This document shows, piece by piece, positions 7,992 through 61,267 of a stretch of 64,000 nucleotides of DNA (the stretch's first letter is position 1; each line of letters opens with the position of its first letter). The notes under the pieces are model-generated. The model saw nothing but the letters and a program-made list of their open reading frames with translations. It was not told where the DNA came from and ran no database searches. The stretch spans positions 36,150 to 100,149 of the forward strand of contig CAZRJB010000002.1 in assembly GCA_964600435.1 (NCBI GenBank). Direction: 5' to 3'. The stretch comes from an uncultured Lachnospiraceae bacterium. GTDB lineage: Bacteria; Bacillota; Clostridia; Christensenellales; UBA1242. The position numbers were made by a program, and so were the translations under genes.

Positions 7992-8002
7992 TTTTCTCCT
8001 GT

Positions 8003-8365
8003 TTAACCATTAAAAATTGTTTTTAAAATTATACCAATAACAAAACTCAACACGGCAAAACCAAATGTTCTTAACAAAAGGAGCCAAAACTCCTGCTTTT
8101 GCTTTTTTAAATCTCTTTTTAAAGTTAATGCCTTGTTTTTTAGTGTTATACAATAATAATAACCATTTTTGCTGTCAGACACAACAAAATCGATGTAATT
8201 ATCTTTTGCAAGTGTAATCATAATGTCGTCCAGTTCGGTTGTGCTAATTAAATATTTTTTAGAAACAAATTCAGCAATTTGTTCCGCCAAAATAAGATAC
8301 GACCTTTTGTTCGGGCATATCTCTAACAAATATAACACAACAAACCTTTCTTTTTTATCTAACAT
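8003..8365 (-). CDS. small hypothetical protein: soluble N-domain plus C-terminal TM anchor (paralog 2)
   Basis: 120 aa. Starts MLDKKERF. C-terminal hydrophobic helix [14 protein letters not shown]. Same architecture as the gene immediately upstream. Confidence 0.6.
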
Positions 8366-8376
8366 TTTTATTATGA

Positions 8377-8748
8377 TTAAAAAATTAATCCATATAAAAT
8401 TATTGCCAAGAAACTACCCAAAAATGCACATATAAACACCAAAAGATATAAAAATGAACCTAATTTATACATTTTTTTTGTTTTTTGCTGTTCGTTGCTT
8501 TCATTTTCTAAAATTTGTCGAGCAAACGGCAAAGGTGAAATGCAATATAGTTTTGAATCTTTATATTTTATTGAAATATAGTTACCTTTTTCTAGATAAT
8601 CCATGCATAAAGATATTGCAGAGTCGTCGGGTTTATATTTTTTTGGCAATGAATTAATTAGTTCTTTAACATCAAAAACCCTATAAGAACCTTCATTGCA
8701 CTCTTTAACTAAATAGTTAAGTAAGTTTTTACTTCTATCATCTAACAT
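8377..8748 (-). CDS. small hypothetical protein: soluble N-domain plus C-terminal TM anchor (paralog 1)
   Basis: I chose the start at M16 of the track ORF (MLDDRSKNLL), which parallels the MLDKKERF start of the downstream paralog. C-terminal TM FLYLLVFICAFLGSFLAIILYGL. Confidence 0.55.
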   Translation of the reverse strand: MLDDRSKNLLNYLVKECNEGSYRVFDVKELINSLPKKYKPDDSAISLCMDYLEKGNYISIKYKDSKLYCISPLPFARQILENESNEQQKTKKMYKLGSFLYLLVFICAFLGSFLAIILYGLIF

Positions 8749-8817
8749 GATTATATTATTTGTTTTTTTTTGAAAAATAATGCCAATATTCAAAATTTAA
8801 CAAAAAACTTTATGCCT

Positions 8818-8858
8818 AAAAAAAAAATAGGAAAAATTATTAAAAAACCAATTTTTCC
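8818..8858 (-). terminator. intrinsic terminator after the 188-aa gene
   Basis: Stem GGAAAAATT/AATTTTTCC (8830-8838 / 8850-8858), followed on the minus strand by TA plus T10. Confidence 0.7.
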
Positions 8859-8869
8859 ATATTTTTTAA

Positions 8870-10917: not shown

Positions 10918-13329
10918 TTATTCTTCAACCAAAAACTTACCAATTTTTAGTTCGCTACCAGAAACAATGTTAATTTGTTTAATGCTCATAACTGCCTTTA
11001 TGTCGTCTATGCAAGATTTTACAAAATCAACATGTTTCACCCCTGCTTCAACGCTTTCAATTTCTGTTTTTAAAGAAACTTTTGCTTCGGATTTGCTTTG
11101 ACGAATTTTTGAAACCAAAGAAATAACTTCATCACCCATTGGCAATATATCTTTGCTTATGTCAACGTCAATTTTATTAATTTGAAGTTTATGAATTGAA
11201 ATTGCTTTCACTGTGTTTTTAAATGTGTTTTGATAAATTTCTTCTGTAACGTGTGGCATGTATATTGCAAACATTTTTAGCATGCCCAAAAGTGCATGGT
11301 AGCAAACAAATTGAGCACTTTGTTTTGCATTTTCGCCATATATTTCTGGTTTATATAATCTGTTTTTAACCAACTCTACATAGTTATCACAAAAGTTCCA
11401 GAAGAAACTTTCTAGTTCGCCCATTGCCAAGCCAACTTCATATTTTTCAAAATATCTAACAAAATTGTCTTGCATGGTGTTAAATTTTGCAATAAGCCAT
11501 TTGTCCATTGGCAACAAATTAACCTGTGTTGGAACATAACCGTCAACAAATTGCCAAACAAATTTGCTTGCATTATATAACTTGTTAAGCAATTTTTGAC
11601 CGTTTTTGAATTGCTCATCACCAAAAATTATATCTCTACCCAAACTTCCTGTTGCTGTCCAATATCTTGTTACATCTGCACTAAACATGTCAATAAGTTG
11701 AAGAGGGTCCGATTTTGCATTGTTTTTGCTTTTTGATATTTTTTCACCTTGTCCAGCCATAACAAAACCAGAAATCATTACGTTTTCCCATGGTTTGGTG
11801 TTGCTATGATAGAAAGATTTAACAATTGTATAAAAATCCCATGTTCGAATAATATCATGTGCATTAGGTCTAAGGCTCATTGGCATTAATCGTTTATACA
11901 TATCATCGTCAACTTTCCATTTGCAGTTTATTTGTGGGGTAACTGATGAAGTTGCCCATGTGTCTAAAATGTCTGTTTCTGGATTAAATTCGGTACTTCC
12001 GCATTTTTCACAAGCACAGTTTGGTTTTTTGGACATTGGATTAACAGGCAAATCTTTTTCATCTGCAACCTTAATTTCTCCGCATTTTGCACAATACCAA
12101 ACTGGAAATGGCACGCCAAAATATTTTTGACGACTAATGCACCAATCCATCATTAAGTTTTCTACCCAGTCGTTATATCTTGCTTGCATAAATGAAGGAT
12201 ACCAAGTTATTTCGTCTCCCTTTTTACGCCATTCTTGTTTGTTTTCTATTGTTTTGATAAACCATTGTTTTTTAAGGTTTATTTCCATTTCTGTTCCACA
12301 TCTTTCATGAACAGAAACTTGGTGAGTTAAAGGCTCTTGCTTGATTAATAAATTTTCAGCTTTTAAATCTTCTATGATGGCATTGCGTGCTTCTTTGCAT
12401 TTTAAACCAGCATATTTTCCTGCTCTTTCGGTCATTCTGCCCGCATCATCAATTGCAACTTTATATTCTAGGTTATATTTTTTAAACCATTGAGTGTCTG
12501 TTTGATCTCCAAAAGTGCAACACATAACAGCACCTGTTCCTTTTTCCATGTCGGCTTTGTCGTCGGTCATGATTGGAACATAATAGTTATACAAAGGAAC
12601 TCTAACATTTTTACCAACCAAATTTTTGTATCTTTGGTCATTTGGATTAACAAAAACGCAATCACATGCACACAAAAATTCTGGTCTTGTGGTTGCAATT
12701 TCTAAATAAGTATCACTGTTTTCAACATAAAATTTTAAATGATTAAAATATGTTTCAATTTCTTTTGTTTCTAGTTCACTTTGAGCAATTGCAGTTCTGC
12801 ACTTTGTGCACCAAAGTGCTGGTGCTTCTGCATAATAAACTTTGTTCTTTTTATAAAGATCCAAAAAAGACATTTGGCTAACTTTTTGTGTTTCGGGGCT
12901 TACTGTGTGATAACGCAAAGACCAATCTGCCGAATTGCCAACTTTTATAAATAGATTTTTAAAATCTTCAACATATTTGTTAACAACTTCCATACAAATG
13001 TTTGTGAATTCTTCACGTGGCAAAGAATAAGCCTTTATGCCTCGCTCTTTTTCAACCAAAAGTTCTGTTGGAAGACCATTATCGTCAAAACCAAAAGGAT
13101 AAAAAACGTTATAACCTCTCATTCTTTTGTATCTGGCAACAAACTCTGCTTGAGAATAACTAAAAATGTGACCAATATGAATTTTTCCACTAACTGTTGG
13201 TGGTGGAGTATCGATTGAAAAAATTGGTTTTGTTGTGTCTGCCTTGTCAAAGTTATATATTCCATTGTCTTGCCAAAACTTTTGCCATTTTTCTTCTGAT
13301 GTTTTGTAATTATATTTGTTTTCTAACAT
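10918..13329 (-). CDS. valS: valine--tRNA ligase (archaeal/short type)
   Basis: DTPPPTVSGKIHIGH (HIGH), ATTRPE editing-domain motif, KISKSK (KMSKS). Start set at M44 of the track ORF (MLENKYNYKTSEEKWQKFWQ) because an AAAGGA SD lies upstream. The upstream part of the track ORF is leader read-through. Confidence 0.85.
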   Translation of the reverse strand: MLENKYNYKTSEEKWQKFWQDNGIYNFDKADTTKPIFSIDTPPPTVSGKIHIGHIFSYSQAEFVARYKRMRGYNVFYPFGFDDNGLPTELLVEKERGIKAYSLPREEFTNICMEVVNKYVEDFKNLFIKVGNSADWSLRYHTVSPETQKVSQMSFLDLYKKNKVYYAEAPALWCTKCRTAIAQSELETKEIETYFNHLKFYVENSDTYLEIATTRPEFLCACDCVFVNPNDQRYKNLVGKNVRVPLYNYYVPIMTDDKADMEKGTGAVMCCTFGDQTDTQWFKKYNLEYKVAIDDAGRMTERAGKYAGLKCKEARNAIIEDLKAENLLIKQEPLTHQVSVHERCGTEMEINLKKQWFIKTIENKQEWRKKGDEITWYPSFMQARYNDWVENLMMDWCISRQKYFGVPFPVWYCAKCGEIKVADEKDLPVNPMSKKPNCACEKCGSTEFNPETDILDTWATSSVTPQINCKWKVDDDMYKRLMPMSLRPNAHDIIRTWDFYTIVKSFYHSNTKPWENVMISGFVMAGQGEKISKSKNNAKSDPLQLIDMFSADVTRYWTATGSLGRDIIFGDEQFKNGQKLLNKLYNASKFVWQFVDGYVPTQVNLLPMDKWLIAKFNTMQDNFVRYFEKYEVGLAMGELESFFWNFCDNYVELVKNRLYKPEIYGENAKQSAQFVCYHALLGMLKMFAIYMPHVTEEIYQNTFKNTVKAISIHKLQINKIDVDISKDILPMGDEVISLVSKIRQSKSEAKVSLKTEIESVEAGVKHVDFVKSCIDDIKAVMSIKQINIVSGSELKIGKFLVEE

Positions 13330-13374
13330 AAAATTTTCCTTTTTGAAATTATTTTTGTGTATTTTTGTTTTAAC

Positions 13375-13402
13375 AAAAAAAAGATAGCACTCTTGTGCCA
13401 CC
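13375..13402 (-). terminator. intrinsic terminator (attenuator) in the valS leader
   Basis: Minus strand GGTGGCAC-AAGA-GTGCTATC (8 bp, two G-U pairs) followed directly by T8. The last T of the tract lies 45 nt upstream of the valS ATG. Confidence 0.65.
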
Positions 13403-13447
13403 TTAAAAACCTGTTTGCATTTTAATTTGGCACAAAAACACTTGTGC
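13392..13447 (-). promoter_or_regulatory. alternative-pairing segments of the valS leader (anti-antiterminator / antiterminator)
   Basis: GCACAA (13442-13447) pairs with TTGTGC. TTTTTGTGCCA pairs with TGGCACAAGAG (13392-13402 region), which overlaps the 5' arm of the terminator. So the 1:2, 2:3 and 3:4 pairings are mutually exclusive. Confidence 0.5.
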
Positions 13448-13459
13448 GGAAACTCCACA

Positions 13460-13498
13460 CTAAATTGTTTTCACGACCACTACCAAATTTTTTTTCAT
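13460..13498 (-). CDS. candidate valS leader peptide MKKNLVVVVKTI
   Basis: ATG AAA AAA AAT TTG GTA GTG GTC GTG AAA ACA ATT TAG read directly from the minus strand. Four consecutive Val codons at 13472-13483. No SD, and the ATG is only 8 nt from the -10 box, so the mRNA would be nearly leaderless. Confidence 0.45.
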   Translation of the reverse strand: MKKNLVVVVKTI

Positions 13499-13506
13499 AC
13501 TTAAAC

Positions 13507-13535
13507 AATTTAACACATCTAATTTTTTCTGTCAA
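13507..13535 (-). promoter_or_regulatory. sigma-A type promoter for the valS leader
   Basis: Minus strand TTGACA (13530-13535), 17-nt spacer, TAAATT (13507-13512). Confidence 0.6.
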
Positions 13536-13590
13536 ATATTTCTGATAACAAAAAACATTTATTAACAAAATTACAAACAATTTTTATGTT

Positions 13591-14295
13591 CTATTTGTTT
13601 TGAGCAAGCAAAATTTCTTTTTCGAACACATTCCAAGGAGTTTTTTCAACAGGTGGAATACATCTAAACATCATTTGTTTTTTTGTTGTTGGATGTTCAA
13701 ACGACAATTCATATGCCCAAAGTGCAAGATTATGCCCTTTTGCCAAAGTATCTCCATTATATTTAACATCACCAAACACTGGGCAACCAATTTGAGACAT
13801 TTGAACTCTTATTTGATGACTTCTGCCAGTTAAAATTTGAACCTCGAGCAAACTAACCTTGTCGATCGTTTGAATTGTTTTATATTCTAAAATTGCTTGC
13901 TTTGCACCATCTTCGCCCCTTGGCACAACTTTTACAATGTTGTTTGTTTCGTCTTTTTTTAAAAAATGCTCAAGCCTGGATGCTTTGTATCTTGGCGTTC
14001 CCACAACCACGGTTAAGTATTTTTTTATAAATTTTTTTGCTTTAATTTGTTCTGACAATCGATTTGCTGCCTTGCTTGTTTTTGCAAAAACCATTATTCC
14101 GCCTGTTGGACGATCTAGTCTATGAACCAACCCAACAAAAACATTTCCTGGTTTGTTATATTTTTCTTTAATATAGTCTTTAACAATGTCTAAAAGTGAT
14201 TTATCTGAAGTTGAGTCACCTTGACTTAAAATGTTTTGTGGTTTTAAAACCACAATTATATGATTATCTTCGTATAAAATGTTTAAATCTTGCAT
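13591..14295 (-). CDS. RluA-family pseudouridine synthase
   Basis: HRLDRPTGGIMVFAKT catalytic-Asp motif and GRSHQIRVQ motif. 234 aa, no S4 domain. Confidence 0.85.
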   Translation of the reverse strand: MQDLNILYEDNHIIVVLKPQNILSQGDSTSDKSLLDIVKDYIKEKYNKPGNVFVGLVHRLDRPTGGIMVFAKTSKAANRLSEQIKAKKFIKKYLTVVVGTPRYKASRLEHFLKKDETNNIVKVVPRGEDGAKQAILEYKTIQTIDKVSLLEVQILTGRSHQIRVQMSQIGCPVFGDVKYNGDTLAKGHNLALWAYELSFEHPTTKKQMMFRCIPPVEKTPWNVFEKEILLAQNK

Positions 14296-24605: not shown

Positions 24606-27600
24606 TTATTGTGTAATTGTTATTGGTGTAATTTGCTCAGGTATAACTGTGTCACTGTTTGTTACAACTTTTTTTGTTAGTAAAATCTTTAAGTCGCTCT
24701 CAGTCATACAGATTTTATCCTGCCAGAGCACAATTTCTCTGTTTATCCCGCTTTCATTTGTGTTAACTCCTTTATATGTTTCAAAAAACACTTCAAGGTC
24801 AGAAAGCAATGTTAATTCTATTTTTACATCTGTTTCTAAGGTAAAACCAACCACATTGTTTTTGAATGTTTTTTCATTCCCTGCAACCAAACCGATTTGT
24901 TGAATGTTTTCAAAAGAATAGGTTGGAATGTTTTCGCCAACAGATTCACTTACATAAGAGAAGTACAATTTGTTTGTTTCTGAAACCTCTTCTGCATTGA
25001 TGTAAGTTTTTTCACCAACAAAATTAATTTTTGTTGTTTCTGTGATAGTATTAGTTTCTTTTGTACAACCGAAAATTCCGCCAACATAGTAAGACCCCAT
25101 AAGTGCCAAACCTGTTGATTTGTTGTAATCTATTTTTCCTTGTTCTTTGTAAACTGTGTTTCCTATGCTAACATTTCCAACTTTTACACCTTCAGCATAG
25201 CCAACAATTCCGCCAACATAACGAGCAATGTATGGGTTGTGAACTTTTAGATGCTGGTCTTCTTGCACGCCTAAAATGTGAGCGCCAACAACCGAATAGC
25301 CGTCTAATGAATTTAGTCCGTCAATTTTTGCACCTTTTGCATAGCCAGCAACACCACCAATTGAAACTGGGGTTATTGGATAACAAGTAAATGCATTGTA
25401 GTTTATAATTTTTGAATTTATTGAGAAATTATTAACTTCTCCTTTAATTTCACCTGCAACATAACCTGCAAAGGCATATGCTTCAACCGAATTGTCAAAC
25501 GAGTTCAAATTAAGGTTAAAGTTTGAAACTTTAGCAATTCCACCAATTCCACCAAACATTAAACCTGAAATCATTGCAAATGTTTTTGCATTTTCGCCAA
25601 CACTTGCTTGAGTTATGTTTGCAACACCGCCAACATAGCCAACTAAAGAACCAGAATAAGAAACCTGACCTCCGTTGGAATTAATCTCAGAAAATTGAAT
25701 TAGCCTTAACAATCCTTCCACATTGGTTTTGTTTGTTGTTAAAGCGGTTGAATTGTAATGAGATGCTTTAACCGAAATGTTTGAATAAATTAAACTTAAG
25801 AATGTTTCATCTGTTGTTCTTCCAAAAAGTCCGCCAACAATGTTTTTACCAATAACAACCACATCTTCACCTAAAACGCTTACATTGGCAACACTTGCAT
25901 TTATTGCTGTTCCAGCAATTGCTCCAACATATATGCTGTTTGGCAAATTGATGTAATATGGCTCAAAAATTGTGTTTTTTAAGCAACTTATTTGAGACTC
26001 TTGACTGCCAATTGACGCAAAAAGTCCGGCTGACAAATTTGAAGTTATGGTGTTAACTGAATAACCAGAAATGCTAAAACCATTACCTTCATAATATCCA
26101 ATTAAAGATTTATTGTATAAATTGCTTGAATATTTTTGTTCTTCTATGTAATTTATGCTACAAATTTGCCTATAATATGAATATTCGCCGTTTAACTGAT
26201 TGCAGTATGTTTCAAACTCGTTAACAGAAGAAATTAAATATGGATTGGTTTCGCTTCCTGGAGTTTGTGAACTTGAAGATGTTGTGTAAATATATTTGTC
26301 TGGATTATTCTTGTCAAAGTTTATGTCTAGTTGAGAGAAAGCAATAATGTTTGGAGAAACCAAATGAAGTCTTCTAGCAATATATTCACCATTTAATGCA
26401 TTTTCGCCATCAACTTTTGTGCTGTATGTAAACATGTTAAACGATGTACTTGCTTCTTTTGTTGAATCAAACACATAAAACCAAACCCCTTGGGATTTTT
26501 TATTGTTTGTTACAAATGACTTTAATTTTGAATCTTGCTTGAATTGACCTGTTGAATCACAAACATTAAAGTCTGCAATGGAAAGTGGTTCAATTCCGTC
26601 AATCACTGAAACAATTTTGTTGTCGGTTTCGCTATAGGTGTAGTTTGTTTGCGATGTGTTGTAGTTTATTAAATTATCTTCAATCAAAAAGAAACAATCT
26701 TTAAAAATAACATTTTCTTCAGTTTGTTCATGAGATGCAACAAAACCATAGTTTAAGGTGTCTTGTTGTTTTAGTTTAGACAACGAGAACACTCTTGTTA
26801 TTGTTCCGGATGTTGCTTTTGCAACAAAACCACTGCTTTCGTTTGTTGACATAATTGGAATGTTTGAATAGCAATCCATAATGTCACCAGAATTTTCATA
26901 AACAAAACCTGCAACTTTTGTTGCTGTGTATATAATTTTTGATGCTTTTGAATCGCTAGCAGCATAATCCGCATAAATTCTTTTTGAAGCTGAATTCATT
27001 AAACCTTCCACATAACACATTGCAATTGAGCCTGTGTTTCTACAAACAAAACCTGCAGTTGTAATGTTTTCGTTTGTGGTTGAAGTTGTGTTGTGAATTC
27101 GTGAATTTTTAATATAAGAACTTGCAACATGCCCAACATTGTTTGCAACAACGCCCGCAAGAGAAGCACCACTTGCTGTTAAGTTGCACTCAACTTGACA
27201 ATTGGTTATGTCGCCATAGTTGTTTGCACAAAGCCCAGCAAAGAACGAATTTTCCATAACAACAATTGTGCTTAAAATGTCAACAGTTACAACGTTGGTT
27301 GATTTTATTGCGCAGTTGGTTATTATGCCGTTGTTTTCCGCAACCAAAAGTGCAATGTTTGCACCATTTGAACTTGTGTTGTTGTCCAAAACAATGTTCA
27401 AGTTGCCTAAAATTTCAATTGTAACATTTTTGATTATGTTTCCAGTTTTGTTTGTTTTAAACAAAGCAAAGTCCGAACTAGAATCCAAAGCAAAATTAAT
27501 TGTTCCTGAAGAAATTTTAATTTTGTAACCATTTCCGTCAAACATTTTTGGAGAAACGGTTAACATTTGCAATTGAGATGGTGATATTGTTATGTCTGCA

Positions 27601-30600
27601 ACTTGTCTATAGTATTCGTCGTCTTTCATTTCCAACATGTCGTTATAGTTATAAATTGGAGTTGCGTTGTCGCTTGTTGTTGACAAATATGAATTAACTT
27701 CAAATTGATAACTTGTTAAAATGTCTGTTTCGGCAGGCTCCGAAATTGTTGGCACGCCTTCAATTGCATCAAGTTTATATTTAATAACAAAAGAGAAATT
27801 GCATGGAGATTGAACAAGTTTTGTTGTTATTGTTTGCCTGTTTAAAATAAATTCGTCATATGATAAATTTGTTGTGTTTGTGATTTGAATTTCGTTTGTG
27901 TTTTTATCTATAAGGAATAATTGAGCATTTGTTTTAAAACTCTCTAAGAATTGATTTTGACTTGGAGTGTTTATGTTTGCACATTCAAACTGAATTTTAT
28001 CTGCAATAACGTTTAAAACATTTGTGCTTTCTAACAATCTTAAATTTATTGTGTTATTTTCACCAAACATATTGTCAGCAACCAAAAATTTATAAATGTG
28101 CAATTTGGTTGTTTTTTTAATGCTTTCTGAAGAATCTTTTTTGCCATAAGATGTTATGATCACTTCTTTATATGCATTGCTTTCATAATTAATATTGTTT
28201 GAAATTTTTAAATAATAACTTCCACCAGCATAAACAACATTTGCAATGCCTGGGTTGTCACTTTCAAAAACAGCTTCATCAGAAGTGTAACCAACAATTG
28301 TTGTGTCTAAAAGATAGGTCATTCCTTCGGCAACATTATATGTTTTGTAATCAGCAAGTTCTTCAACAACCTTTTTGTTGTAAATTTCAAAAGAAACTTG
28401 ATTTGTAAGTTTAGAAATTAAGTTTGTTGTTTCAACCCAAACTGGTTCTGATACATTTTTGTTGTAAAAACTAAAAGTTATTGGAATAATTGTTCCATCG
28501 GCAACAGTTTTTGGGATTTTATAAACCAAACCAATAAGCAAACTATCATCAATTTCTTTAATGGAATTTTTAAATATTCTAATTGTTGAACCGCCAGTGA
28601 TTGATGTGTAAACAGAATCACTAGACACTGTGCCTTTTTTGTTGGCTGAATCGTATTGAATATATCCCAAATAGCCACCTTCTGCTTGAAGTTGCATGGT
28701 GACATCAACGTAGTCAAATTGGCTATATTTTGTGTTTACATATGCATTTATAGTGTTCAATTCTGCTGTTGATGCTTGATTGCCTGAGTAAAGCATTTCT
28801 TTTAAGTCAAATGTGTTTACTCCGTTTGATGATGTTATCATTTCTGTATTGTTTGAAGAATCAAAGTTGTTTATCAAAACTGAAGAGATGGTTTCTGGGG
28901 TTATTGTTATGTAAACGGTTATGCTTTGATTTGTTTTGTGTGATGTTAAAACCAATTTAATGGTTTTTCCAACCAAATAATTATAGGTTTCTGTGTCAAA
29001 ACTGCCTTCGCCCAACATTCTTAAAGAAAAATCAATTCTTTTTGTTAAGTTTTGTAAATCAATGACATCACCCCATTTTAACGTGAACAATGTTTTTTCT
29101 TCTTCTGTTTCAAAAGTACCTGAACCTTTTATACCAATTTTTTGTGAATTATTTTTTAAATTGAAATATTGATAATCAATTATTGTGTTTCCGTTTGAAT
29201 CTTTTGTTTCTTCTCCAACACCCAGTTGTGCAGAAAAGAAATCAGAATCATCAAAAGTGTTGTAAGTTAAGAAAAATTCGATTGTGTCGGTTGGTTCTGC
29301 GGACAAATGAGATTTGTTTGTTTTTACATTTTCAATTCCCATTGTTGCTTCAACTGTATAACCATTTAATTCGTAAGTGTATGAAGAGTTAATTGTTTTT
29401 TGTTTTGCAAAAACTAAAAGTTTTTTGTTGTTGTCACCTACAACCATATCCTCAGAATTATCAGTTTTCTTTGTTTCACAATAATATGTATAACCATCGA
29501 GTTTAAAAATTGTGTAAAAACTTATTTCGTCAGTAGTTATTTCCGCTTTTCTTGTTACAAAAGCAGTTGTGCCTTGAACAGAAATTAATAAATCTGTTAT
29601 ATTTCCATTAACTTCAAAAGAAATTTCGTTGTTTTGTGCCAAGGTTATTGGTGTGTTTTTGTAGTTATAGAAACTTGAAGCTGCCTTGAAATATACAAAC
29701 GTTGTTTGATTGTTGACCAATGTGATTTTGCTCATTGATTCTGTTTTTTCTTTGTTTTTGTAAGCAGTGATTGTGTCGTAGTAATTTGTTATGTTTAACT
29801 CTGCTGTTGTTTGGTTTGTGTAGTTTAATGCGCTAGAAATTTTTATGTTTAAGGCACCAACACCCAAAATGCAAATGTTTTTGCCATAATATTCAAGCCT
29901 TGCAACCGAAGGATTTTTAATTTCCAAATCTATATCTCTGCAAGTTATGTTAAGATATTTTAAGAGAGAAATTGTGTCTGTTAGGTTGGAAATTTTTTGT
30001 TGGTCGACACTATTGCTTGCTTGCATATATGCGGCAATGACCATTTTTATGTTGTTTGGCAATGAGTCTTCTGAGCCTTCAGTGAATTTGCTATAATAAT
30101 ATATATTGGTTGAATCTGCAAAAACAACATCGCCATAATAGTAATCTTTGGAGTTGCCATCATCGCCGCTATAATCATATTCGATTGAAGTATTACTATT
30201 TGCAGCGCTTAAACCAGAATGAATATTTCTTTTAAAATATGTTTCAGCGGTGATGCCTGCAGCAATAGAACTTGGTGCAGTAACAAGAACCTTGTTTGAA
30301 TCATAGGCACCATAATAAACAATAAACGAAGCGTTTATGCCGGTTCTTTCACCGTTGTCAACTGCTTGAATTTTGTTGTTTGAATAAGTTGTACCACTTG
30401 AAGCTGCAACAAATCCACTTAAAATTGTGCCTGAGCCTCTAACAAAAATTCTTGAAGTGTTGTTTTTAATTTCTCCACCACTTGAAGTCGCAACAAAGCC
30501 GGCAACATTGGTTGCGGATAATGTTTTTTTGGTATTATCTGTGTTGGTTTTTATTATTCTTCCATCAATTTCGCCGGTCACTTTTAAGCCAGAAATTGTG

Positions 30601-33600
30601 CCGCCAACATTAGAGCCAACAATTCCGCCAAAATTGGTTGCATTTGACAAAGCAAAAATGCTTGCATGAATTCCATAAAGCCCAATTGTGATTAAATCTT
30701 GTGATAATGTGTTTTGAATTGTTCCAGTATTATAGCCAACAATTCCGCCAAAATTTGATGTCTGCGAACCACTGAACTCAACCGAAAGCGTTGTTGTTTT
30801 TGTGTTGCAAACCATTAATGTGTAATTTTTACAATTGTCATCAATTTGGATTGTTCCTATGTTTGTGCCTGCAACCAAACCAAAATTTACATTGATTGAG
30901 TCATTTTGGGTGTTCACAACAACTGTGTTTTGTTCATTTAATTCAACAAACACATTTGAAATTGTTCCGTTGTTTGTTCCACACAAAAGCCCAATGTTTG
31001 TTTCTGAATTTACATTGTATTCACTTGAAAACAACCCACTTATGCTCAAGTTGTAAACTTTTGCATCATTTTCAATTGTTTGAAACAAACCTTTGTTAAC
31101 TTTGAAATTGGTTATTCTTCCATATTGGTTAATGTTTTTAAAGTCTTTATGGTCTGAATATAAAAATGTTCCACGAATTGAACCTGTTAAAATTCCAAGG
31201 TTAACTAGTTCATTTTTGCAATCTATTTCGGTATCTACATAGTAGTGTTTGTCGGGCGACAAGGTTTTTAAGTCTTGCAAAGAAGAAATTTTTAAAGCGG
31301 TTTGTTCAGACAAGCCGTCAGCACAAACAAAGTTTAATTCTAGGTGATAGTAATAATTTCCGTTGGAATCTGTTGGAGAATTTGTTTTCATAACAGAAAT
31401 TGGGAAAATTAAAACTTTGCCCGAACCAGCACTGTTAAACTTAAAGGTTATTTTGTTATTGTCGGTTTCTGCGATTTCTGCAATTAAACAATTTGAATCT
31501 TTTGTGTCAATATATACAAAAACTTCTTTAAAGTTTGCATTTTCGGGATAAACTTGAACATTTATTGTTTTTTCTGCGTTTACTGCATCCAAATATATAT
31601 ATTCTTCTGGACTAGAAAGCCAAATGCTTTCAACATTAATATATTTTTCAACAACCAAAGTCACGTCCGATTTAAAGGTTTCGTTTGTGTTGGAATCTTT
31701 AATTTCAACCGAAATGTTTATCGAATCGGCATTGCTTAAACCAAGGTAGTTAAACTCAAATTTTCCAATGTAGCCTTTGTCATTTATTGTAGCAACTTCA
31801 TTATTTAGGCTATTAAAGGTTAAAGTTCCAATTGATGTTCCATTGTTGTTTTTAACCGAACCATCTTGTTTAATTGTAAAAGTTTCGTTATCATAAACAA
31901 ATTCAATGTCAGCAAGATTAATTGGATGATTTGTGGTGCCTTCTGAACTCATGTTAACATTTAAATATAAATAAGTTGATGCAAGGTTAACATTTTTATA
32001 AGACAAATCTCTTTTGTTGTATATGCTTGCTTTTTTTAACAAATCGTTCTGATCAACTTGTTCATTTTTGCTGCTGGCATAAAGCGAAGCGGACTTTATG
32101 TAATTTATGCATTTTAAGCGGACTGTTATGTTTTCTATTTCTGGTTCTTTCAATTGAAACAAAAGTGTGCCGTTGTGGTCACGACTGATTTTGTTTAACG
32201 TTATGGCAACTGTTAATGTTTTTGTTGTGTTTTCTTCTGTAAAATTTTTTGTTGTTATTGTTCCGTTTTCAGAAACTTCAAAATTATCGTAGTTTTCAAG
32301 CGAATAAGAATAAGTGAAAGAATTTTGATTGTAGTCTTTAAATGTTGTTGTTGGTTTTACGGCAAGATTAACTTTTGAGCCTATTCCTTTTATTGTTATG
32401 GTGTTTAAATTGCCGCCATCATCATAACCAAAGTCTGAAACATTATTGTTGACTTGGTCGGCAAAATCAAGTTTGAGGCCACTCTCGTTAATCTCTCTAA
32501 AAATTATCACTTTTAATGTTGTTTGAAGCCCGTTTGCTGTTGTAAATTCAAAGGTTTGTTCGCCAACACTTTTTGGAGTGATTGTTATTTGTGTAGACAA
32601 GCTGCTTGTTTGTTCAATTGTGCATATGTTTTGTTTAGACGATGAATAAATTGACATTTTGCCAGGAACTGCATCTTTTGATTCGTTTTGACACACCAAA
32701 CCATTGAATGTATATTCTTTTGTTTCTTCTTCTAGTGGTAAATATATTATTCCATTTGTAAAGCTTGTATTAACATAAAAACTTGTTGCACCGGCAAACA
32801 CATTAATGTTTATTTCTCTAGAACAAATCTTTTCATGAGTGCTTAGGTCGGCAGTTTTATCACCTTTGTAGCAAACAACTTTTATGTAATAGTTTGTGGT
32901 TGCAGAAATTGCAGAAATTGTTATTGCATTTTTCAACTCGCCTAAGTCAAAAACCGTATTGTTGTCATCAGGCTCTAACCCACCAAGTTTAACAGTAAAG
33001 GATTTTTTAATTTCTGAATAATTTACTGATGTAGGGTCTTGGGTTGTGCTCCCAGTTTCAGGTTTTTTCCAAAACTCTAATTTGTAAGAATAATTTTCCA
33101 CAACCGCTTTTTGTGGCATGATTCCAAACTTTAAACTTTTGGAAGTTGCATTTCCGGTTGTATATAATTCAATTTCGGTAAGATTTGCTTGATTGTTGAC
33201 TGTTATGTTGTTAGGTTCGCAAATTGCACTAACCTCAATTGTTACATCGACTTTGTTTTCTTCAAAATCGTTTTGATACACTTCAAATTTTAGTTCTGAG
33301 TCTGTTAAAGTAACATCTGAGGCAGACAAAATAAATTCGGAATTTTTGTTGATTATGATTGGATTTGTGCAAACATCAACTCCATCAAGAGTAATGTTTT
33401 TTGATGCGGAAATTTTTATGGAATATTTATCTCCAAACAAAAAGTCAACCTTTAGTTTCTTTTTGTAACCTGAATCTTTTGTTAAAACAAGTTCAACAGG
33501 TTGGTTTTTGCCCTCTCCTGCTTCAATTAATGGAGTAAAATCATTGCCAAAACTATCAACGTTGTCTGTGCTTTGGTTTGCATATGAAATGTTTAACCCT

Positions 33601-34262
33601 CCTAAATCTATTTCATCAGCAATTTTAACCACCAAATTTGTGGTAATGTTTGAATTATGCATGCTTGTGGCTTTTATTGTGATTGTGTCCGCTGTGCAAC
33701 CATTTTCTACCATTAAAACATTGGTTTCTTTGTTGAAAGTTACACCAGTTATGCCTTGAGAATTTTCGTCCAATTCAAACGTTAAACCTGTTAGTGTTGC
33801 ATTTTCGGGGGTGAATGTAAACATTGAAGAGTCAATTTTTAAAGAACCACCCTTTTTGATGTATATGTTTTGTTTTGCGGAAACAGATTCAATTTCTTTT
33901 GCAACAACAACGGGAACAGAAATGTGATTGCCGATTCCCCTTAAAGTTATTGTTAAAGTTGTGTTTCCTTCAGATATTGGTGCTATCGAGAATTTGTATT
34001 CTCCACCACCTAAGTTTTCTATTGATTTGTCAACATATGCGGCTTTTTGCTCTGCAAAATAAAAGTCAAATTCCGCATTAAAATCAAAATAGTTATTAAT
34101 TACAATTGTGTAATCAACTTTTTGGTCGGTTGTTAACATTTCAATTTTGTCTGCGTTTTTTAAAGACAGCGAAAGAGAACCATAGTCCTGCGAACAGCCG
34201 GACAACATTGCTCCAGTTAAAATTATTAATAATAATGTGACTATGCTTAATGTTTTTTTCAT
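24606..34262 (-). CDS. giant surface lipoprotein (about 3218 aa) with Ig-like regions and three GLUG-like repeat blocks
   Basis: Uninterrupted 9.7-kb ORF. Start at M15 of the track ORF, with a GGAGAG SD. MKKTLSIVTLLLIILTGAMLSGC is a lipoprotein signal with lipobox LSGC. More than 20 motifs by eye of the type NFGGIVGYNTGTIQN / VAGFVYENSGDIMDCYS. Confidence 0.85.
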   Translation of the reverse strand: MKKTLSIVTLLLIILTGAMLSGCSQDYGSLSLSLKNADKIEMLTTDQKVDYTIVINNYFDFNAEFDFYFAEQKAAYVDKSIENLGGGEYKFSIAPISEGNTTLTITLRGIGNHISVPVVVAKEIESVSAKQNIYIKKGGSLKIDSSMFTFTPENATLTGLTFELDENSQGITGVTFNKETNVLMVENGCTADTITIKATSMHNSNITTNLVVKIADEIDLGGLNISYANQSTDNVDSFGNDFTPLIEAGEGKNQPVELVLTKDSGYKKKLKVDFLFGDKYSIKISASKNITLDGVDVCTNPIIINKNSEFILSASDVTLTDSELKFEVYQNDFEENKVDVTIEVSAICEPNNITVNNQANLTEIELYTTGNATSKSLKFGIMPQKAVVENYSYKLEFWKKPETGSTTQDPTSVNYSEIKKSFTVKLGGLEPDDNNTVFDLGELKNAITISAISATTNYYIKVVCYKGDKTADLSTHEKICSREININVFAGATSFYVNTSFTNGIIYLPLEEETKEYTFNGLVCQNESKDAVPGKMSIYSSSKQNICTIEQTSSLSTQITITPKSVGEQTFEFTTANGLQTTLKVIIFREINESGLKLDFADQVNNNVSDFGYDDGGNLNTITIKGIGSKVNLAVKPTTTFKDYNQNSFTYSYSLENYDNFEVSENGTITTKNFTEENTTKTLTVAITLNKISRDHNGTLLFQLKEPEIENITVRLKCINYIKSASLYASSKNEQVDQNDLLKKASIYNKRDLSYKNVNLASTYLYLNVNMSSEGTTNHPINLADIEFVYDNETFTIKQDGSVKNNNGTSIGTLTFNSLNNEVATINDKGYIGKFEFNYLGLSNADSINISVEIKDSNTNETFKSDVTLVVEKYINVESIWLSSPEEYIYLDAVNAEKTINVQVYPENANFKEVFVYIDTKDSNCLIAEIAETDNNKITFKFNSAGSGKVLIFPISVMKTNSPTDSNGNYYYHLELNFVCADGLSEQTALKISSLQDLKTLSPDKHYYVDTEIDCKNELVNLGILTGSIRGTFLYSDHKDFKNINQYGRITNFKVNKGLFQTIENDAKVYNLSISGLFSSEYNVNSETNIGLLCGTNNGTISNVFVELNEQNTVVVNTQNDSINVNFGLVAGTNIGTIQIDDNCKNYTLMVCNTKTTTLSVEFSGSQTSNFGGIVGYNTGTIQNTLSQDLITIGLYGIHASIFALSNATNFGGIVGSNVGGTISGLKVTGEIDGRIIKTNTDNTKKTLSATNVAGFVATSSGGEIKNNTSRIFVRGSGTILSGFVAASSGTTYSNNKIQAVDNGERTGINASFIVYYGAYDSNKVLVTAPSSIAAGITAETYFKRNIHSGLSAANSNTSIEYDYSGDDGNSKDYYYGDVVFADSTNIYYYSKFTEGSEDSLPNNIKMVIAAYMQASNSVDQQKISNLTDTISLLKYLNITCRDIDLEIKNPSVARLEYYGKNICILGVGALNIKISSALNYTNQTTAELNITNYYDTITAYKNKEKTESMSKITLVNNQTTFVYFKAASSFYNYKNTPITLAQNNEISFEVNGNITDLLISVQGTTAFVTRKAEITTDEISFYTIFKLDGYTYYCETKKTDNSEDMVVGDNNKKLLVFAKQKTINSSYTYELNGYTVEATMGIENVKTNKSHLSAEPTDTIEFFLTYNTFDDSDFFSAQLGVGEETKDSNGNTIIDYQYFNLKNNSQKIGIKGSGTFETEEEKTLFTLKWGDVIDLQNLTKRIDFSLRMLGEGSFDTETYNYLVGKTIKLVLTSHKTNQSITVYITITPETISSVLINNFDSSNNTEMITSSNGVNTFDLKEMLYSGNQASTAELNTINAYVNTKYSQFDYVDVTMQLQAEGGYLGYIQYDSANKKGTVSSDSVYTSITGGSTIRIFKNSIKEIDDSLLIGLVYKIPKTVADGTIIPITFSFYNKNVSEPVWVETTNLISKLTNQVSFEIYNKKVVEELADYKTYNVAEGMTYLLDTTIVGYTSDEAVFESDNPGIANVVYAGGSYYLKISNNINYESNAYKEVIITSYGKKDSSESIKKTTKLHIYKFLVADNMFGENNTINLRLLESTNVLNVIADKIQFECANINTPSQNQFLESFKTNAQLFLIDKNTNEIQITNTTNLSYDEFILNRQTITTKLVQSPCNFSFVIKYKLDAIEGVPTISEPAETDILTSYQFEVNSYLSTTSDNATPIYNYNDMLEMKDDEYYRQVADITISPSQLQMLTVSPKMFDGNGYKIKISSGTINFALDSSSDFALFKTNKTGNIIKNVTIEILGNLNIVLDNNTSSNGANIALLVAENNGIITNCAIKSTNVVTVDILSTIVVMENSFFAGLCANNYGDITNCQVECNLTASGASLAGVVANNVGHVASSYIKNSRIHNTTSTTNENITTAGFVCRNTGSIAMCYVEGLMNSASKRIYADYAASDSKASKIIYTATKVAGFVYENSGDIMDCYSNIPIMSTNESSGFVAKATSGTITRVFSLSKLKQQDTLNYGFVASHEQTEENVIFKDCFFLIEDNLINYNTSQTNYTYSETDNKIVSVIDGIEPLSIADFNVCDSTGQFKQDSKLKSFVTNNKKSQGVWFYVFDSTKEASTSFNMFTYSTKVDGENALNGEYIARRLHLVSPNIIAFSQLDINFDKNNPDKYIYTTSSSSQTPGSETNPYLISSVNEFETYCNQLNGEYSYYRQICSINYIEEQKYSSNLYNKSLIGYYEGNGFSISGYSVNTITSNLSAGLFASIGSQESQISCLKNTIFEPYYINLPNSIYVGAIAGTAINASVANVSVLGEDVVVIGKNIVGGLFGRTTDETFLSLIYSNISVKASHYNSTALTTNKTNVEGLLRLIQFSEINSNGGQVSYSGSLVGYVGGVANITQASVGENAKTFAMISGLMFGGIGGIAKVSNFNLNLNSFDNSVEAYAFAGYVAGEIKGEVNNFSINSKIINYNAFTCYPITPVSIGGVAGYAKGAKIDGLNSLDGYSVVGAHILGVQEDQHLKVHNPYIARYVGGIVGYAEGVKVGNVSIGNTVYKEQGKIDYNKSTGLALMGSYYVGGIFGCTKETNTITETTKINFVGEKTYINAEEVSETNKLYFSYVSESVGENIPTYSFENIQQIGLVAGNEKTFKNNVVGFTLETDVKIELTLLSDLEVFFETYKGVNTNESGINREIVLWQDKICMTESDLKILLTKKVVTNSDTVIPEQITPITITQ

Positions 34263-34402
34263 AGTTCTCTCTCCGTTCTTTATTTTTTTTGTTTTGTTTT
34301 TCATTTTTCTTGTTTTTTTGTTATTTTAACATTTTTTCAACCAAAACCATAACTTTTTTAAACATATTTATTTTGTTTTTATAATTATGTGTTGCCATTA
34401 TG

Positions 34403-59910: not shown

Positions 59911-61167
59911 TTACAACTCACCATTGTTGCTGAAAATTTCTACAAAGCTTTTAAAACCAAACTCAGCAAGCCTTTCTTTTTGAAATTTGGCATTGTTGTT
60001 TCTTGGAGAAATCATCACTGTTTTGCCTTGTTTTCTCAATTCGTTTGCTCTTTTGATTGTTTGTTGAATTTTTTCTTTTTTTACATCTTTTGCAATTAAA
60101 ACCGCCAACTTGTCTTGGTTTTCGGCAGGAGCAAGATTGTTGTCTTTTATAACTGAAATGATTCTTTCAAAACCAATGGAAAATCCGCAAGCACAAACTT
60201 CTTTCAAGCAATATTTTCCTATCATTTTATCATACCTTCCACCACCAGCAACAGAAGCATGATAGTTGCTAAGTTCAATTTCAAAAATTGGCCCAGTATA
60301 ATATGACATTCCTCTAACCAAAGTTGGGTCAAAAACAACTCTGCATTGATTATTTACAAGGCTTGATGTTATTTCAATTATATCATTTAAGTTTTCAACA
60401 ACTTCGTCAGGCAAATAGCCTTGCAGTTTGTTGCCAATAAAACTTTTACAATCAACTGCATCGTTTAAGTTTTCAAACATTGAACAATATTGTTCAACAT
60501 TGTCTTTTTCAAGACCAAATTCTAACAAACAATTTTTTACTCCGTCCAAACCAATTTTGTCAATTTTGTCAAGGATTATATAAATAGACTCTAACTTCTC
60601 TTCTGAAAAATGGCAAGCAAGAGCCATTGCTTTTAAAATGTTTCTGTCATTAACTCTAACCTTTAACTCTTTAATACCCAATTCGTTTAGCATGTTTGCA
60701 GTGGCTGTAATAAGTTCAATTTCTGCCAAGTTGCTACCATCGCCAAGAATATCTATGTCGCATTGAGTAAATTGCCTAAATCTACCCTTTTGCGGTCTAT
60801 CTGCCCTAAAAGATTCTCCTATTTGCAAAGACTTAAAAGGCAACGGCAACTTTTCGCCATTGTTTGCATAAAACCTTGCAAGAGGAACAGTTAAATCGTA
60901 TCTAAGCCCACTATCGCACAAATCTTCTAAAGATTCAGATTTTGTAAGTTTTTCACCCCTTTTCATAATTTTAAAAATTAACTGTTCGTTTTCACCACCT
61001 TGTTTATTGGTTAAGTTTTCTATGTGTTCAATTAATGGGGTGTTTATTAGCATAAAACCATGTTTTTTGTATGTATCTTTTATTTTTCTTAAAGCATATT
61101 CTCTAATAACCATATCGTTTGGCATTTGTTCTGGCATGCCTTTAACGGGTGTTTTAATAAATTCCAT
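59911..61167 (-). CDS. hisS: histidine--tRNA ligase
   Basis: RYDLTVPLARF, FRADRPQKGRFRQFTQCDIDILG and GGGRYD motifs of class II HisRS. 418 aa. Confidence 0.93.
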   Translation of the reverse strand: MEFIKTPVKGMPEQMPNDMVIREYALRKIKDTYKKHGFMLINTPLIEHIENLTNKQGGENEQLIFKIMKRGEKLTKSESLEDLCDSGLRYDLTVPLARFYANNGEKLPLPFKSLQIGESFRADRPQKGRFRQFTQCDIDILGDGSNLAEIELITATANMLNELGIKELKVRVNDRNILKAMALACHFSEEKLESIYIILDKIDKIGLDGVKNCLLEFGLEKDNVEQYCSMFENLNDAVDCKSFIGNKLQGYLPDEVVENLNDIIEITSSLVNNQCRVVFDPTLVRGMSYYTGPIFEIELSNYHASVAGGGRYDKMIGKYCLKEVCACGFSIGFERIISVIKDNNLAPAENQDKLAVLIAKDVKKEKIQQTIKRANELRKQGKTVMISPRNNNAKFQKERLAEFGFKSFVEIFSNNGEL

Positions 61168-61267
61168 TTTAAATCTCCTAGTATTGTCATTTAAGTTGTG
61201 TTATTATTTTCATTAAATTACAATAAAAAATAGTCTTTATGCAACTATTTTTCACATAACTTGTTTT

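Follow-up and report, generated by a model that had tools for sequence, protein, structure and literature searches.

Introduction

Attenuation by a leader peptide is a textbook mechanism, exemplified by the trp, his, leu, and ilv leaders. In Escherichia coli, it extends to an aminoacyl-tRNA synthetase (aaRS), as the Phe-rich leader peptide of pheM controls phenylalanyl-tRNA synthetase (pheST). The aaRS genes of Firmicutes are textbook territory of the T-box riboswitch. Here, we analyze 64,000 nucleotides (nt) of contig CAZRJB010000002.1 from an uncultured bacterium of the gut Clostridia (the whole stretch is hereafter called the window) and focus on valS, the gene of valyl-tRNA synthetase (ValRS), and the leader that precedes it on the minus strand. 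The leader combines a short open reading frame (ORF) carrying four consecutive Val codons with mutually exclusive RNA helices, and we suggest, with a probability of roughly 0.8, that it is a Val-sensing, ribosome-mediated (leader-peptide) transcription attenuator of valS.

Systems of this kind are sparsely distributed among synthetase genes. A 2005 survey named E. coli pheM–pheST as precedent, predicted attenuators ahead of the leuS and trpS2 genes of Streptomyces, and knew of no Firmicutes aaRS gene with classical attenuation (PMC1262725). A His leader peptide was later predicted at a hisS paralog/hisZ in bacilli and described as replacing a T-box (PMC2965389), and His-leader attenuators of his operons occur in Peptostreptococcaceae, Erysipelotrichales, and the B. 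cereus group (PMC9413887). In mycobacteria, leaderless polycysteine short ORFs attenuate downstream genes (10.1101/834739). Full-text literature searches returned no earlier report of a leader-peptide attenuator for valS.

The valS leader resembles pheM–pheST in that a leader ORF with cognate codons and a terminator/antiterminator pair are predicted to control an aaRS gene through charged-tRNA feedback. The two differ in amino acid, gene, and phylum (Proteobacteria versus Clostridia) and share no sequence similarity. A normal ribosome-binding site precedes pheM, whereas the valS leader ORF is predicted to start at the 5′ end of its transcript. With trpL, leuL, hisL, ivbL, and ilvL of Proteobacteria, the valS leader shares a 1:2 protector, a 2:3 antiterminator, and a 3:4 terminator with a U-tract, as well as regulatory codons in segment 1, the use of rare codons, and termination as the predicted default when translation is absent. 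Unlike those leaders, which control biosynthetic operons, it would control a synthetase, matches no Rfam leader, carries in its protector an extra apical hairpin starting at the stop codon, and is probably carried on a leaderless message. Like the Streptomyces leuS and trpS2 and the bacilli hisZ cases, it is a prediction from comparative genomics that concerns an aaRS or aaRS-like gene of a Gram-positive bacterium, but the amino acids and lineages are different, and the Bacillus target is a paralog whereas valS is the sole housekeeping synthetase. The mycobacterial polycysteine ORFs likewise are leaderless and short and contain a row of codons for a single amino acid, but they belong to Actinobacteria, read Cys, and precede biosynthetic genes, and the valS leader has a canonical terminator. 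A valS T-box (RF00230) occupies the same position at the same gene and uses the same signal, tRNA(Val) charging, to choose between terminator and antiterminator, but it senses by a ribosome-free RNA–tRNA contact, and its Stem I, specifier, and T-box sequence are absent at the valS leader. The valS leader would thus add a case to a known mechanism. Two of its traits are less usual, namely, the probably leaderless sensor ORF and a target that is a housekeeping synthetase of a Firmicute, and the understanding of attenuation itself is left unchanged.

Architecture of the valS Leader

The valS gene (10918–13329, minus strand) encodes a ValRS of 803 residues, an assignment based on full-length ValRS matches in 80 genomes, and it has its own Shine–Dalgarno (SD) sequence, AAGGA, at 13341–13337, ahead of the ATG at 13329. 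All features of the leader are read on the same strand. Its sigma-70-type promoter (13507–13535) consists of a −35 hexamer TTGACA (13535–13530), a 17-nt spacer, and an extended −10 element TGT-TAAATT (13515–13507), in which the hexamer TAAATT itself lies at 13512–13507 with TG ahead of it. The promoter matches at 10 of 12 positions in addition to the TG and is the top promoter match in the region. Eight nucleotides past the −10 element begins a mini-ORF of 12 codons (13498–13460; ATG AAA AAA AAT TTG GTA GTG GTC GTG AAA ACA ATT TAG), which encodes the peptide MKKNLVVVVKTI* and has no SD sequence visible ahead of it. The proposed sensing site is the Val run GTA GTG GTC GTG (13483–13472), the single occurrence of (GTN)4 on the minus strand of the 64-kb window.

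Downstream of the promoter, four helices can be drawn. Segment 1, the 5′ strand of the protector (13462–13479), comprises Val codons 2–4 and the three trailing codons, so that in this model, as with leaders of the trp type, the Val codons belong to segment 1. An apical hairpin (13444–13460; GUGUGGA-GUU-UCCGCAC), which starts on the final G of the stop codon, forms the tip of the protector. Segment 2 (13428–13443; AAGUGUUUUUGUGCCA) serves as the protector 3′ strand or, alternatively, as the 5′ strand of the antiterminator, and its core UGUGCCA is invariant. A variable AU-rich spacer separates segment 2 from an intrinsic terminator (13404–13375), in which a stem of 10 bp, AAGGUGGCAC-AAGA-GUGCUAUCUU, extends to 13381 (arms also listed as AAGGTGGCAC-AAGA-GTGCTATCTT, 13404–13381) and is followed by a U8 tract at 13382–13375. 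Segment 3 (13386–13400; UGGCACAAGAGUGCU) either forms the antiterminator with segment 2 or is part of the terminator. The pairings exclude each other twice: UGUGCCA can pair with the Val-codon strand or with UGGCAC, and UGGCAC, in the terminator 5′ arm, can pair with segment 2 or with the terminator 3′ arm. From the last U of the U8 tract (13375), 45 nt remain to the valS ATG.

Much of this arrangement was recognized in the original prediction, which was made from the letters of the window. The near-consensus promoter TTGACA-17-TAAATT with an ATG 8 nt later, the mini-ORF with four consecutive Val codons (13498–13460), the pairing segments GCACAA (13447–13442), TTTTTGTGCCA (13438–13428), and TGGCACAAGAG (13400–13390), and the terminator with U8 and 45 nt to the valS ATG all lie where it had put them. 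Its reading of the locus as a leader-peptide attenuator gains support from the conservation and covariation described below, and its assignment of helices is amended. It had proposed an anti-antiterminator split into two parts, with the Val codons in the intervening insert, and so missed the principal helix, which pairs 13479–13462 with 13443–13428 and has the Val codons in segment 1. This protector, capped by the hairpin at 13460–13444, also removes the earlier caveat that the geometry does not fit that of trp. The pairing of GCACAA with TTGTGC exists, but it is a minor alternative of 5–6 bp rather than the principal anti-antiterminator.

Conservation of the Val Run in the Mini-ORF

Relatives were gathered in two sets. 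A ValRS protein scan with one genome per species of GTDB yielded 80 valS loci, all with full-length ValRS matches (52–89% identity) and all from uncultured Clostridia/Christensenellales-like metagenome-assembled genomes (MAGs) of gut and rumen, and a metagenome scan yielded 80 further valS loci, among them one new leader carrier. The leader is present upstream of valS in all eight closest relatives (ValRS 82–90% identical), namely, in seven genomes with ValRS identity of at least 82% (L001–L006 and L056) and in a metagenome contig (L081; 90%). Together with the window, these make up the nine leaders compared here.

Across the nine leaders, the promoter pattern TTGAC(A/G), 17–18 nt, TGnTAnnnT is common to all, and the terminator is found in all. 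The spacing from the −10 element to the ATG is 6–10 nt in each (10 nt in L003). An extended −10 element this close leaves no room for an SD sequence, so initiation is predicted to be leaderless or near-leaderless; in the window, we infer that the message of the mini-ORF is leaderless or has a 5′ untranslated region (UTR) of 2 nt.

The Val run, expected by the original prediction in orthologous leaders, was found in 8 of 8 relatives. Leader peptides of the relatives are MENLVVVVNNN, MKRFLVVVVKIS, MKKNLVVVVNNL, MKKIYVVVVNKF, MKKQFVVVVEKF, MKINNVVVVNKF, MKEVLVVVVNKK, and MKNSLVVVVNSL. Every one of the nine leader ORFs keeps the ATG, the frame, four to five codons ahead of the run, the four Val codons, and exactly three codons behind them, and the stop codon, which is TAG or TAA, always abuts the base of the apical hairpin. 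Codons outside the Val run vary nonsynonymously across the nine genomes. This pattern of conservation is the one predicted for a translated sensor ORF.

Within the run, two constraints can be told apart. The sequence GTN GTG GTC GTG is kept in all nine leaders. Val codon 1 lies outside the protector helix. It always begins with GT, and all four bases occur at its third position; variation confined to the wobble position of a codon that is not in the helix is a signature of coding and not of pairing. Codons 2–4 behave differently. Silent sites of the nine valS genes are highly diverged: all nine share the codon at just 3 of the 28 columns in which Val is invariant and at 12 of the 140 invariant four-fold codons. 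The invariance of GTG GTC GTG therefore marks an additional constraint at the nucleotide level. We attribute it to pairing with (U)UGUGCCA, which would have frozen GUGGUCGUG. The codons are also rare: Val usage in the genome is 72% GTT, 10–12% GTG, and 3–4% GTC, and the run is built largely of GTG and GTC. Rare regulatory codons are used in several classical leaders.

Alternative Helices and Their Covariation

The 133-nt window leader (the leader itself is about 125 nt long) folds more stably than dinucleotide shuffles of its sequence (z = −4.25). In the nascent RNA up to UGUGCCA, the protector is the minimum free energy (MFE) structure in nine of nine species, at −16.6 to −22.5 kcal/mol, and in the full-length free RNA, the combination of protector and terminator is the MFE structure in seven of nine. 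A stalled ribosome covers about 13 nt downstream, and we therefore simulated stalling by masking a footprint to 13 nt beyond the first base of the A-site codon. With the Val codons so masked in a transcript ending at segment 3, the apical hairpin and the antiterminator form in all nine species. The protector 5′ strand consists of Val codons 2–4 and the next 9 nt, where a stalled ribosome would mask it.

Evolution of the helices was evaluated in two ways. In the first, a MAFFT alignment of protector and apical hairpin was compared with versions in which the 3′ partner was moved by one to three columns and with 500 shuffles. In the second, duplex energies of each species' own strands were compared with those of strands swapped across species and assessed by permutation; this test of cognate versus noncognate strands was added because the AU-rich middle helix of the protector changes register between species. 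For the protector and apical hairpin, 84.9% of cells are paired, versus 34–61% (at most 60.8%) when the partner is slid, seven pairs have changed on both sides, and none of the 500 shuffles matched the covariation score. Cognate protector strands average −4.6 kcal/mol and noncognate strands −2.2 kcal/mol (permutation P = 5e-5). The apical hairpin has compensatory changes in three pairs (cognate/noncognate P = 1.5e-4), and the arms of the terminator covary (P = 5e-5). For the antiterminator, the invariant core leaves little signal (P = 0.034), and an RNAalifold consensus contains the apical hairpin and the UGUGCCA:UGGCAC antiterminator (columns 70–78 with 105–113), with compensatory pairs. Compensatory change is thus seen in each of the four helices. 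Such changes had been expected for the stems, and they are seen in the alternative helices.

Two other pairings were evaluated and set aside or given a lesser role. A three-way junction, in which GGUAGUG (13483–13477) pairs with the terminator 3′ arm (13390–13383), can form in the window and in L005 and is absent from the other seven leaders; we treat it as probably species specific or incidental. A first model, in which a ribosome at the stop codon would free GCACA for UGUGC and read-through would be the default, was dropped given the protector in all nine nascent folds. The 5–6 bp pairing of GCACA with UGUGC, found in five of nine species, may still contribute for as long as a ribosome occupies the stop codon.

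Proposed Mechanism of Attenuation

Our model builds on directly supported features, which are the elements, their conservation, and their covariation, and joins them through a transcription start, leaderless translation, ribosome stalling, and termination efficiencies that we infer. Transcription would start at the ATG or 0–4 nt before it, and the ORF would be read as a leaderless or near-leaderless message. The nascent RNA would first make the protector, whose 5′ strand of Val codons 2–4 and the trailing codons pairs with a 3′ strand that terminates in UGUGCCA, with the stop-codon hairpin at the tip. When Val-tRNA(Val) is ample, the ribosome would finish and depart, and the protector would sequester UGUGCCA. 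With UGUGCCA held, UGGCAC would be free, the terminator with GUGCUAUC and U8 would form, and transcription would end 45 nt before valS. The same result is predicted without any translation, making termination the default. When charged tRNA(Val) runs short, as it would if ValRS were limiting, the ribosome would stall with a Val codon in its A site and cover the protector 5′ strand, to about 13 nt downstream. UGUGCCA would then be released and pair with UGGCAC once this is made, forming the antiterminator; no terminator would form and valS would be transcribed. The predicted outcome is a negative feedback on ValRS activity, and T-boxes and the pheM–pheST system of E. coli follow the same logic.

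Several points weigh against this mechanism. Pairing of RNA alone could account for the nucleotide invariance of GTGGTCGTG. The lack of an SD sequence means that efficient initiation on a leaderless message or one with a 2–4-nt UTR would be required, which we assume for this lineage. The comparison comprises nine sequences only, from a single narrow clade and all from uncultured MAGs. Thermodynamics is not uniformly favorable either. With the Val codons masked, the full-length MFE structure keeps the terminator in five of nine species; the window and L005 differ in their free full-length RNA, for which the MFE structure is the three-way junction with the antiterminator rather than protector plus terminator; and on the free nascent transcript of most species, the UGGCAC core can displace the lower protector helix at equilibrium. 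Because the terminator is thermodynamically favored in five of nine masked folds, the decision must be kinetic, as in classical attenuators.

Alternative Explanations

The leader could be translated and yet sense general translation capacity or coupling instead of valine, or its 12-residue product could have a function of its own. The protector is the default fold, so any pause within the first nine codons would relieve termination, and translation is also slow through N-termini rich in Lys and in AAA codons. However, the Val run is the sole conserved part of the peptide, with all other residues varying, and four cognate, rare codons fall exactly on the protector strand ahead of valS, which argues for specificity. 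Conservation as VVVV alone makes a role of the peptide in trans improbable. We consider this explanation quite unlikely.

The second alternative dispenses with translation. The leader would be an untranslated RNA switch that senses a ligand, a tRNA, or a protein, or simply a leaky terminator that can fold in alternative ways, with GUN-GUG-GUC-GUG kept for pairing and the ORF incidental. The nucleotide-level invariance of GUGGUCGUG and its pairing with UGUGCCA are as this explanation predicts, as is a mini-ORF that lacks an SD sequence, and an open frame of 12 codons is likely enough in AT-rich DNA (about 0.4 per sequence by our estimate). An incidental ORF, however, would not be expected to have its ATG 6–10 nt from the −10 element in nine of nine leaders, to retain frame and length despite many substitutions in codons 2–5 and 10–12, or to place its stop codon, TAG or TAA, at the foot of the apical hairpin every time. 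Nor would pairing explain Val codon 1, which is outside the protector and has an invariant GT with all four third bases, and it would be a coincidence that the run encodes the amino acid that the product of the downstream gene attaches to tRNA. The leader also matches no Rfam family. On this evidence, an untranslated switch is very unlikely.

A degenerate or miniaturized T-box, in which a GUN triplet is the specifier for tRNA(Val) and UGGC of AAGGUGGCAC binds the acceptor end, is hardly credible: the Val triplets are present and AAGGUGGCAC, as it reads in the leaders of L001 and the window, is similar to the core AAGGUGGUACC of T-boxes in relatives, but that likeness (AAGGUGG) is not kept in other leaders, which read AGUGGCAC, UGUGGCAU, GAUGGCAC, or AAUGGCAC and share only an invariant UGGCA that is wholly explained by cis pairing with UGCCA; UGGC would imply a discriminator G where the usual discriminator of tRNA(Val) is A73; the leader has no Stem I and is only about 125 nt long; no T-box match is found at E ≤ 10 or in the eight orthologous loci, when true valS T-boxes of relatives score 95–142 bits; and a profile of the leader matches nothing in T-box-bearing loci.

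Distribution and Origin of the Leader

Outside the nine carriers, the Val-sensing attenuator proposed here has no counterpart in our sample. The leader arrangement was not found in any of 151 other, more distant valS loci, and an nhmmer profile of the leader matched the nine carriers only; the regions ahead of the other valS genes, with or without a T-box, gave no match. Where runs of three Val codons precede these genes, they lie in longer frames open for 15–124 codons or in tiny fragments and lack the leader architecture. Between species that carry the leader, the gene upstream of it varies, which indicates that promoter and leader travel with valS as a unit.

T-boxes show a complementary pattern. 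A T-box core motif occurs in about 50 of the 151 valS loci without the leader, and in 9 of 12 distant loci searched with Rfam, full T-box leaders (95–142 bits) are directly upstream of valS. Rfam detected no T-box in the eight orthologous leader loci. In the window, as the original prediction anticipated, a scan of all 64 kb at the gathering threshold found neither a T-box nor any other Rfam family, and a scan of 13250–13650 at E ≤ 10 gave chance-level matches to unrelated families and no T-box. Curated Rfam leader families (Leu, His, Thr, Trp, Phe, and others) likewise had no match in 13250–13650 at E ≤ 10. In the nearest outgroups (about 65–73% identity), valS is directly behind another gene or a plain promoter and has neither leader nor T-box. 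As the closest neighbors have neither T-box nor leader peptide, this distribution suggests a de novo origin of the attenuator and not the direct replacement of a T-box. The claim that valS is controlled in this way "instead of" by a T-box is therefore a fair functional description, since T-boxes precede valS in distant relatives, but it does not carry over to the sister lineages, which lack both elements.

Some valS loci without the leader have recurrent neighbors. In L007–L025, L043, and L048, valS is often about 20–60 nt behind a methyltransferase-like gene whose product ends in ...YGKVQIDF..., with no leader between them. In several distant relatives, a tRNA-Val(UAC) gene is located about 15–45 nt upstream of the valS T-box (L087, 509–582; L088, 1168–1240; L089, 1176–1248; L091, 1157–1231), and the tRNA-Val gene and the adjacent T-box predicted to sense that tRNA are possibly cotranscribed. 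In L077, a tRNA-His gene occupies the corresponding place upstream of the valS T-box.

If the leader functions as proposed, its significance is for the range of the mechanism. Since the 2005 survey, only a hisS paralog has been predicted to have classical attenuation in Firmicutes (PMC2965389), and valS looks like a clean, covariation-supported case at a housekeeping synthetase. Two sensors of charging would be evolutionarily interchangeable, even inside one order. The leaderless start would be a natural example of how a nascent transcript that has no ribosome-binding site can be coupled to translation. The element is compact, at about 125 nt, is known from nine sequences, and is directly testable. 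A broader proposal is that this clade of gut Clostridia, whose genomes are small, invented a leaderless attenuator de novo and may use the design for several aaRS genes instead of T-boxes. Were this true, the lineage would have shifted from RNA that senses tRNA to control that senses through the ribosome, and leaderless initiation by 70S ribosomes would set the timing by which the first ribosome and RNA polymerase are coupled. We regard the broader proposal as unlikely. A scan of about 0.95 Mb of fetched DNA, for an extended −10 element, an ATG within 5–11 nt, a short ORF with a run of at least three codons, and a T-run, recovered the valS leaders only, in addition to one false positive inside a gene in L039. 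Extension of the contig that holds the window yielded no new aaRS genes.

Other Features of the Window

The only other aaRS gene in the window is hisS (59911–61167), which has only about 100 nt of upstream sequence (61168–61267). As had been noted before, this leaves no room for a T-box, and in this upstream region we found no T-box match, no run of His codons or mini-ORF, and no obvious attenuator. From its sequence, hisS appears to be without charging control at the RNA level.

Two adjacent giant ORFs on the minus strand (24606–34304, 3232 residues, and 34403–54994, 6863 residues) take up about 30 kb of the window and have a slightly higher G+C content (about 0.33–0.36). They presumably encode giant surface or adhesin-like proteins, and a related Logan contig has a product of 5968 residues in their place. 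Elsewhere in the window, a gap of about 880 nt (7992–8869) lies between uvrB and the next ORF of at least 150 residues.

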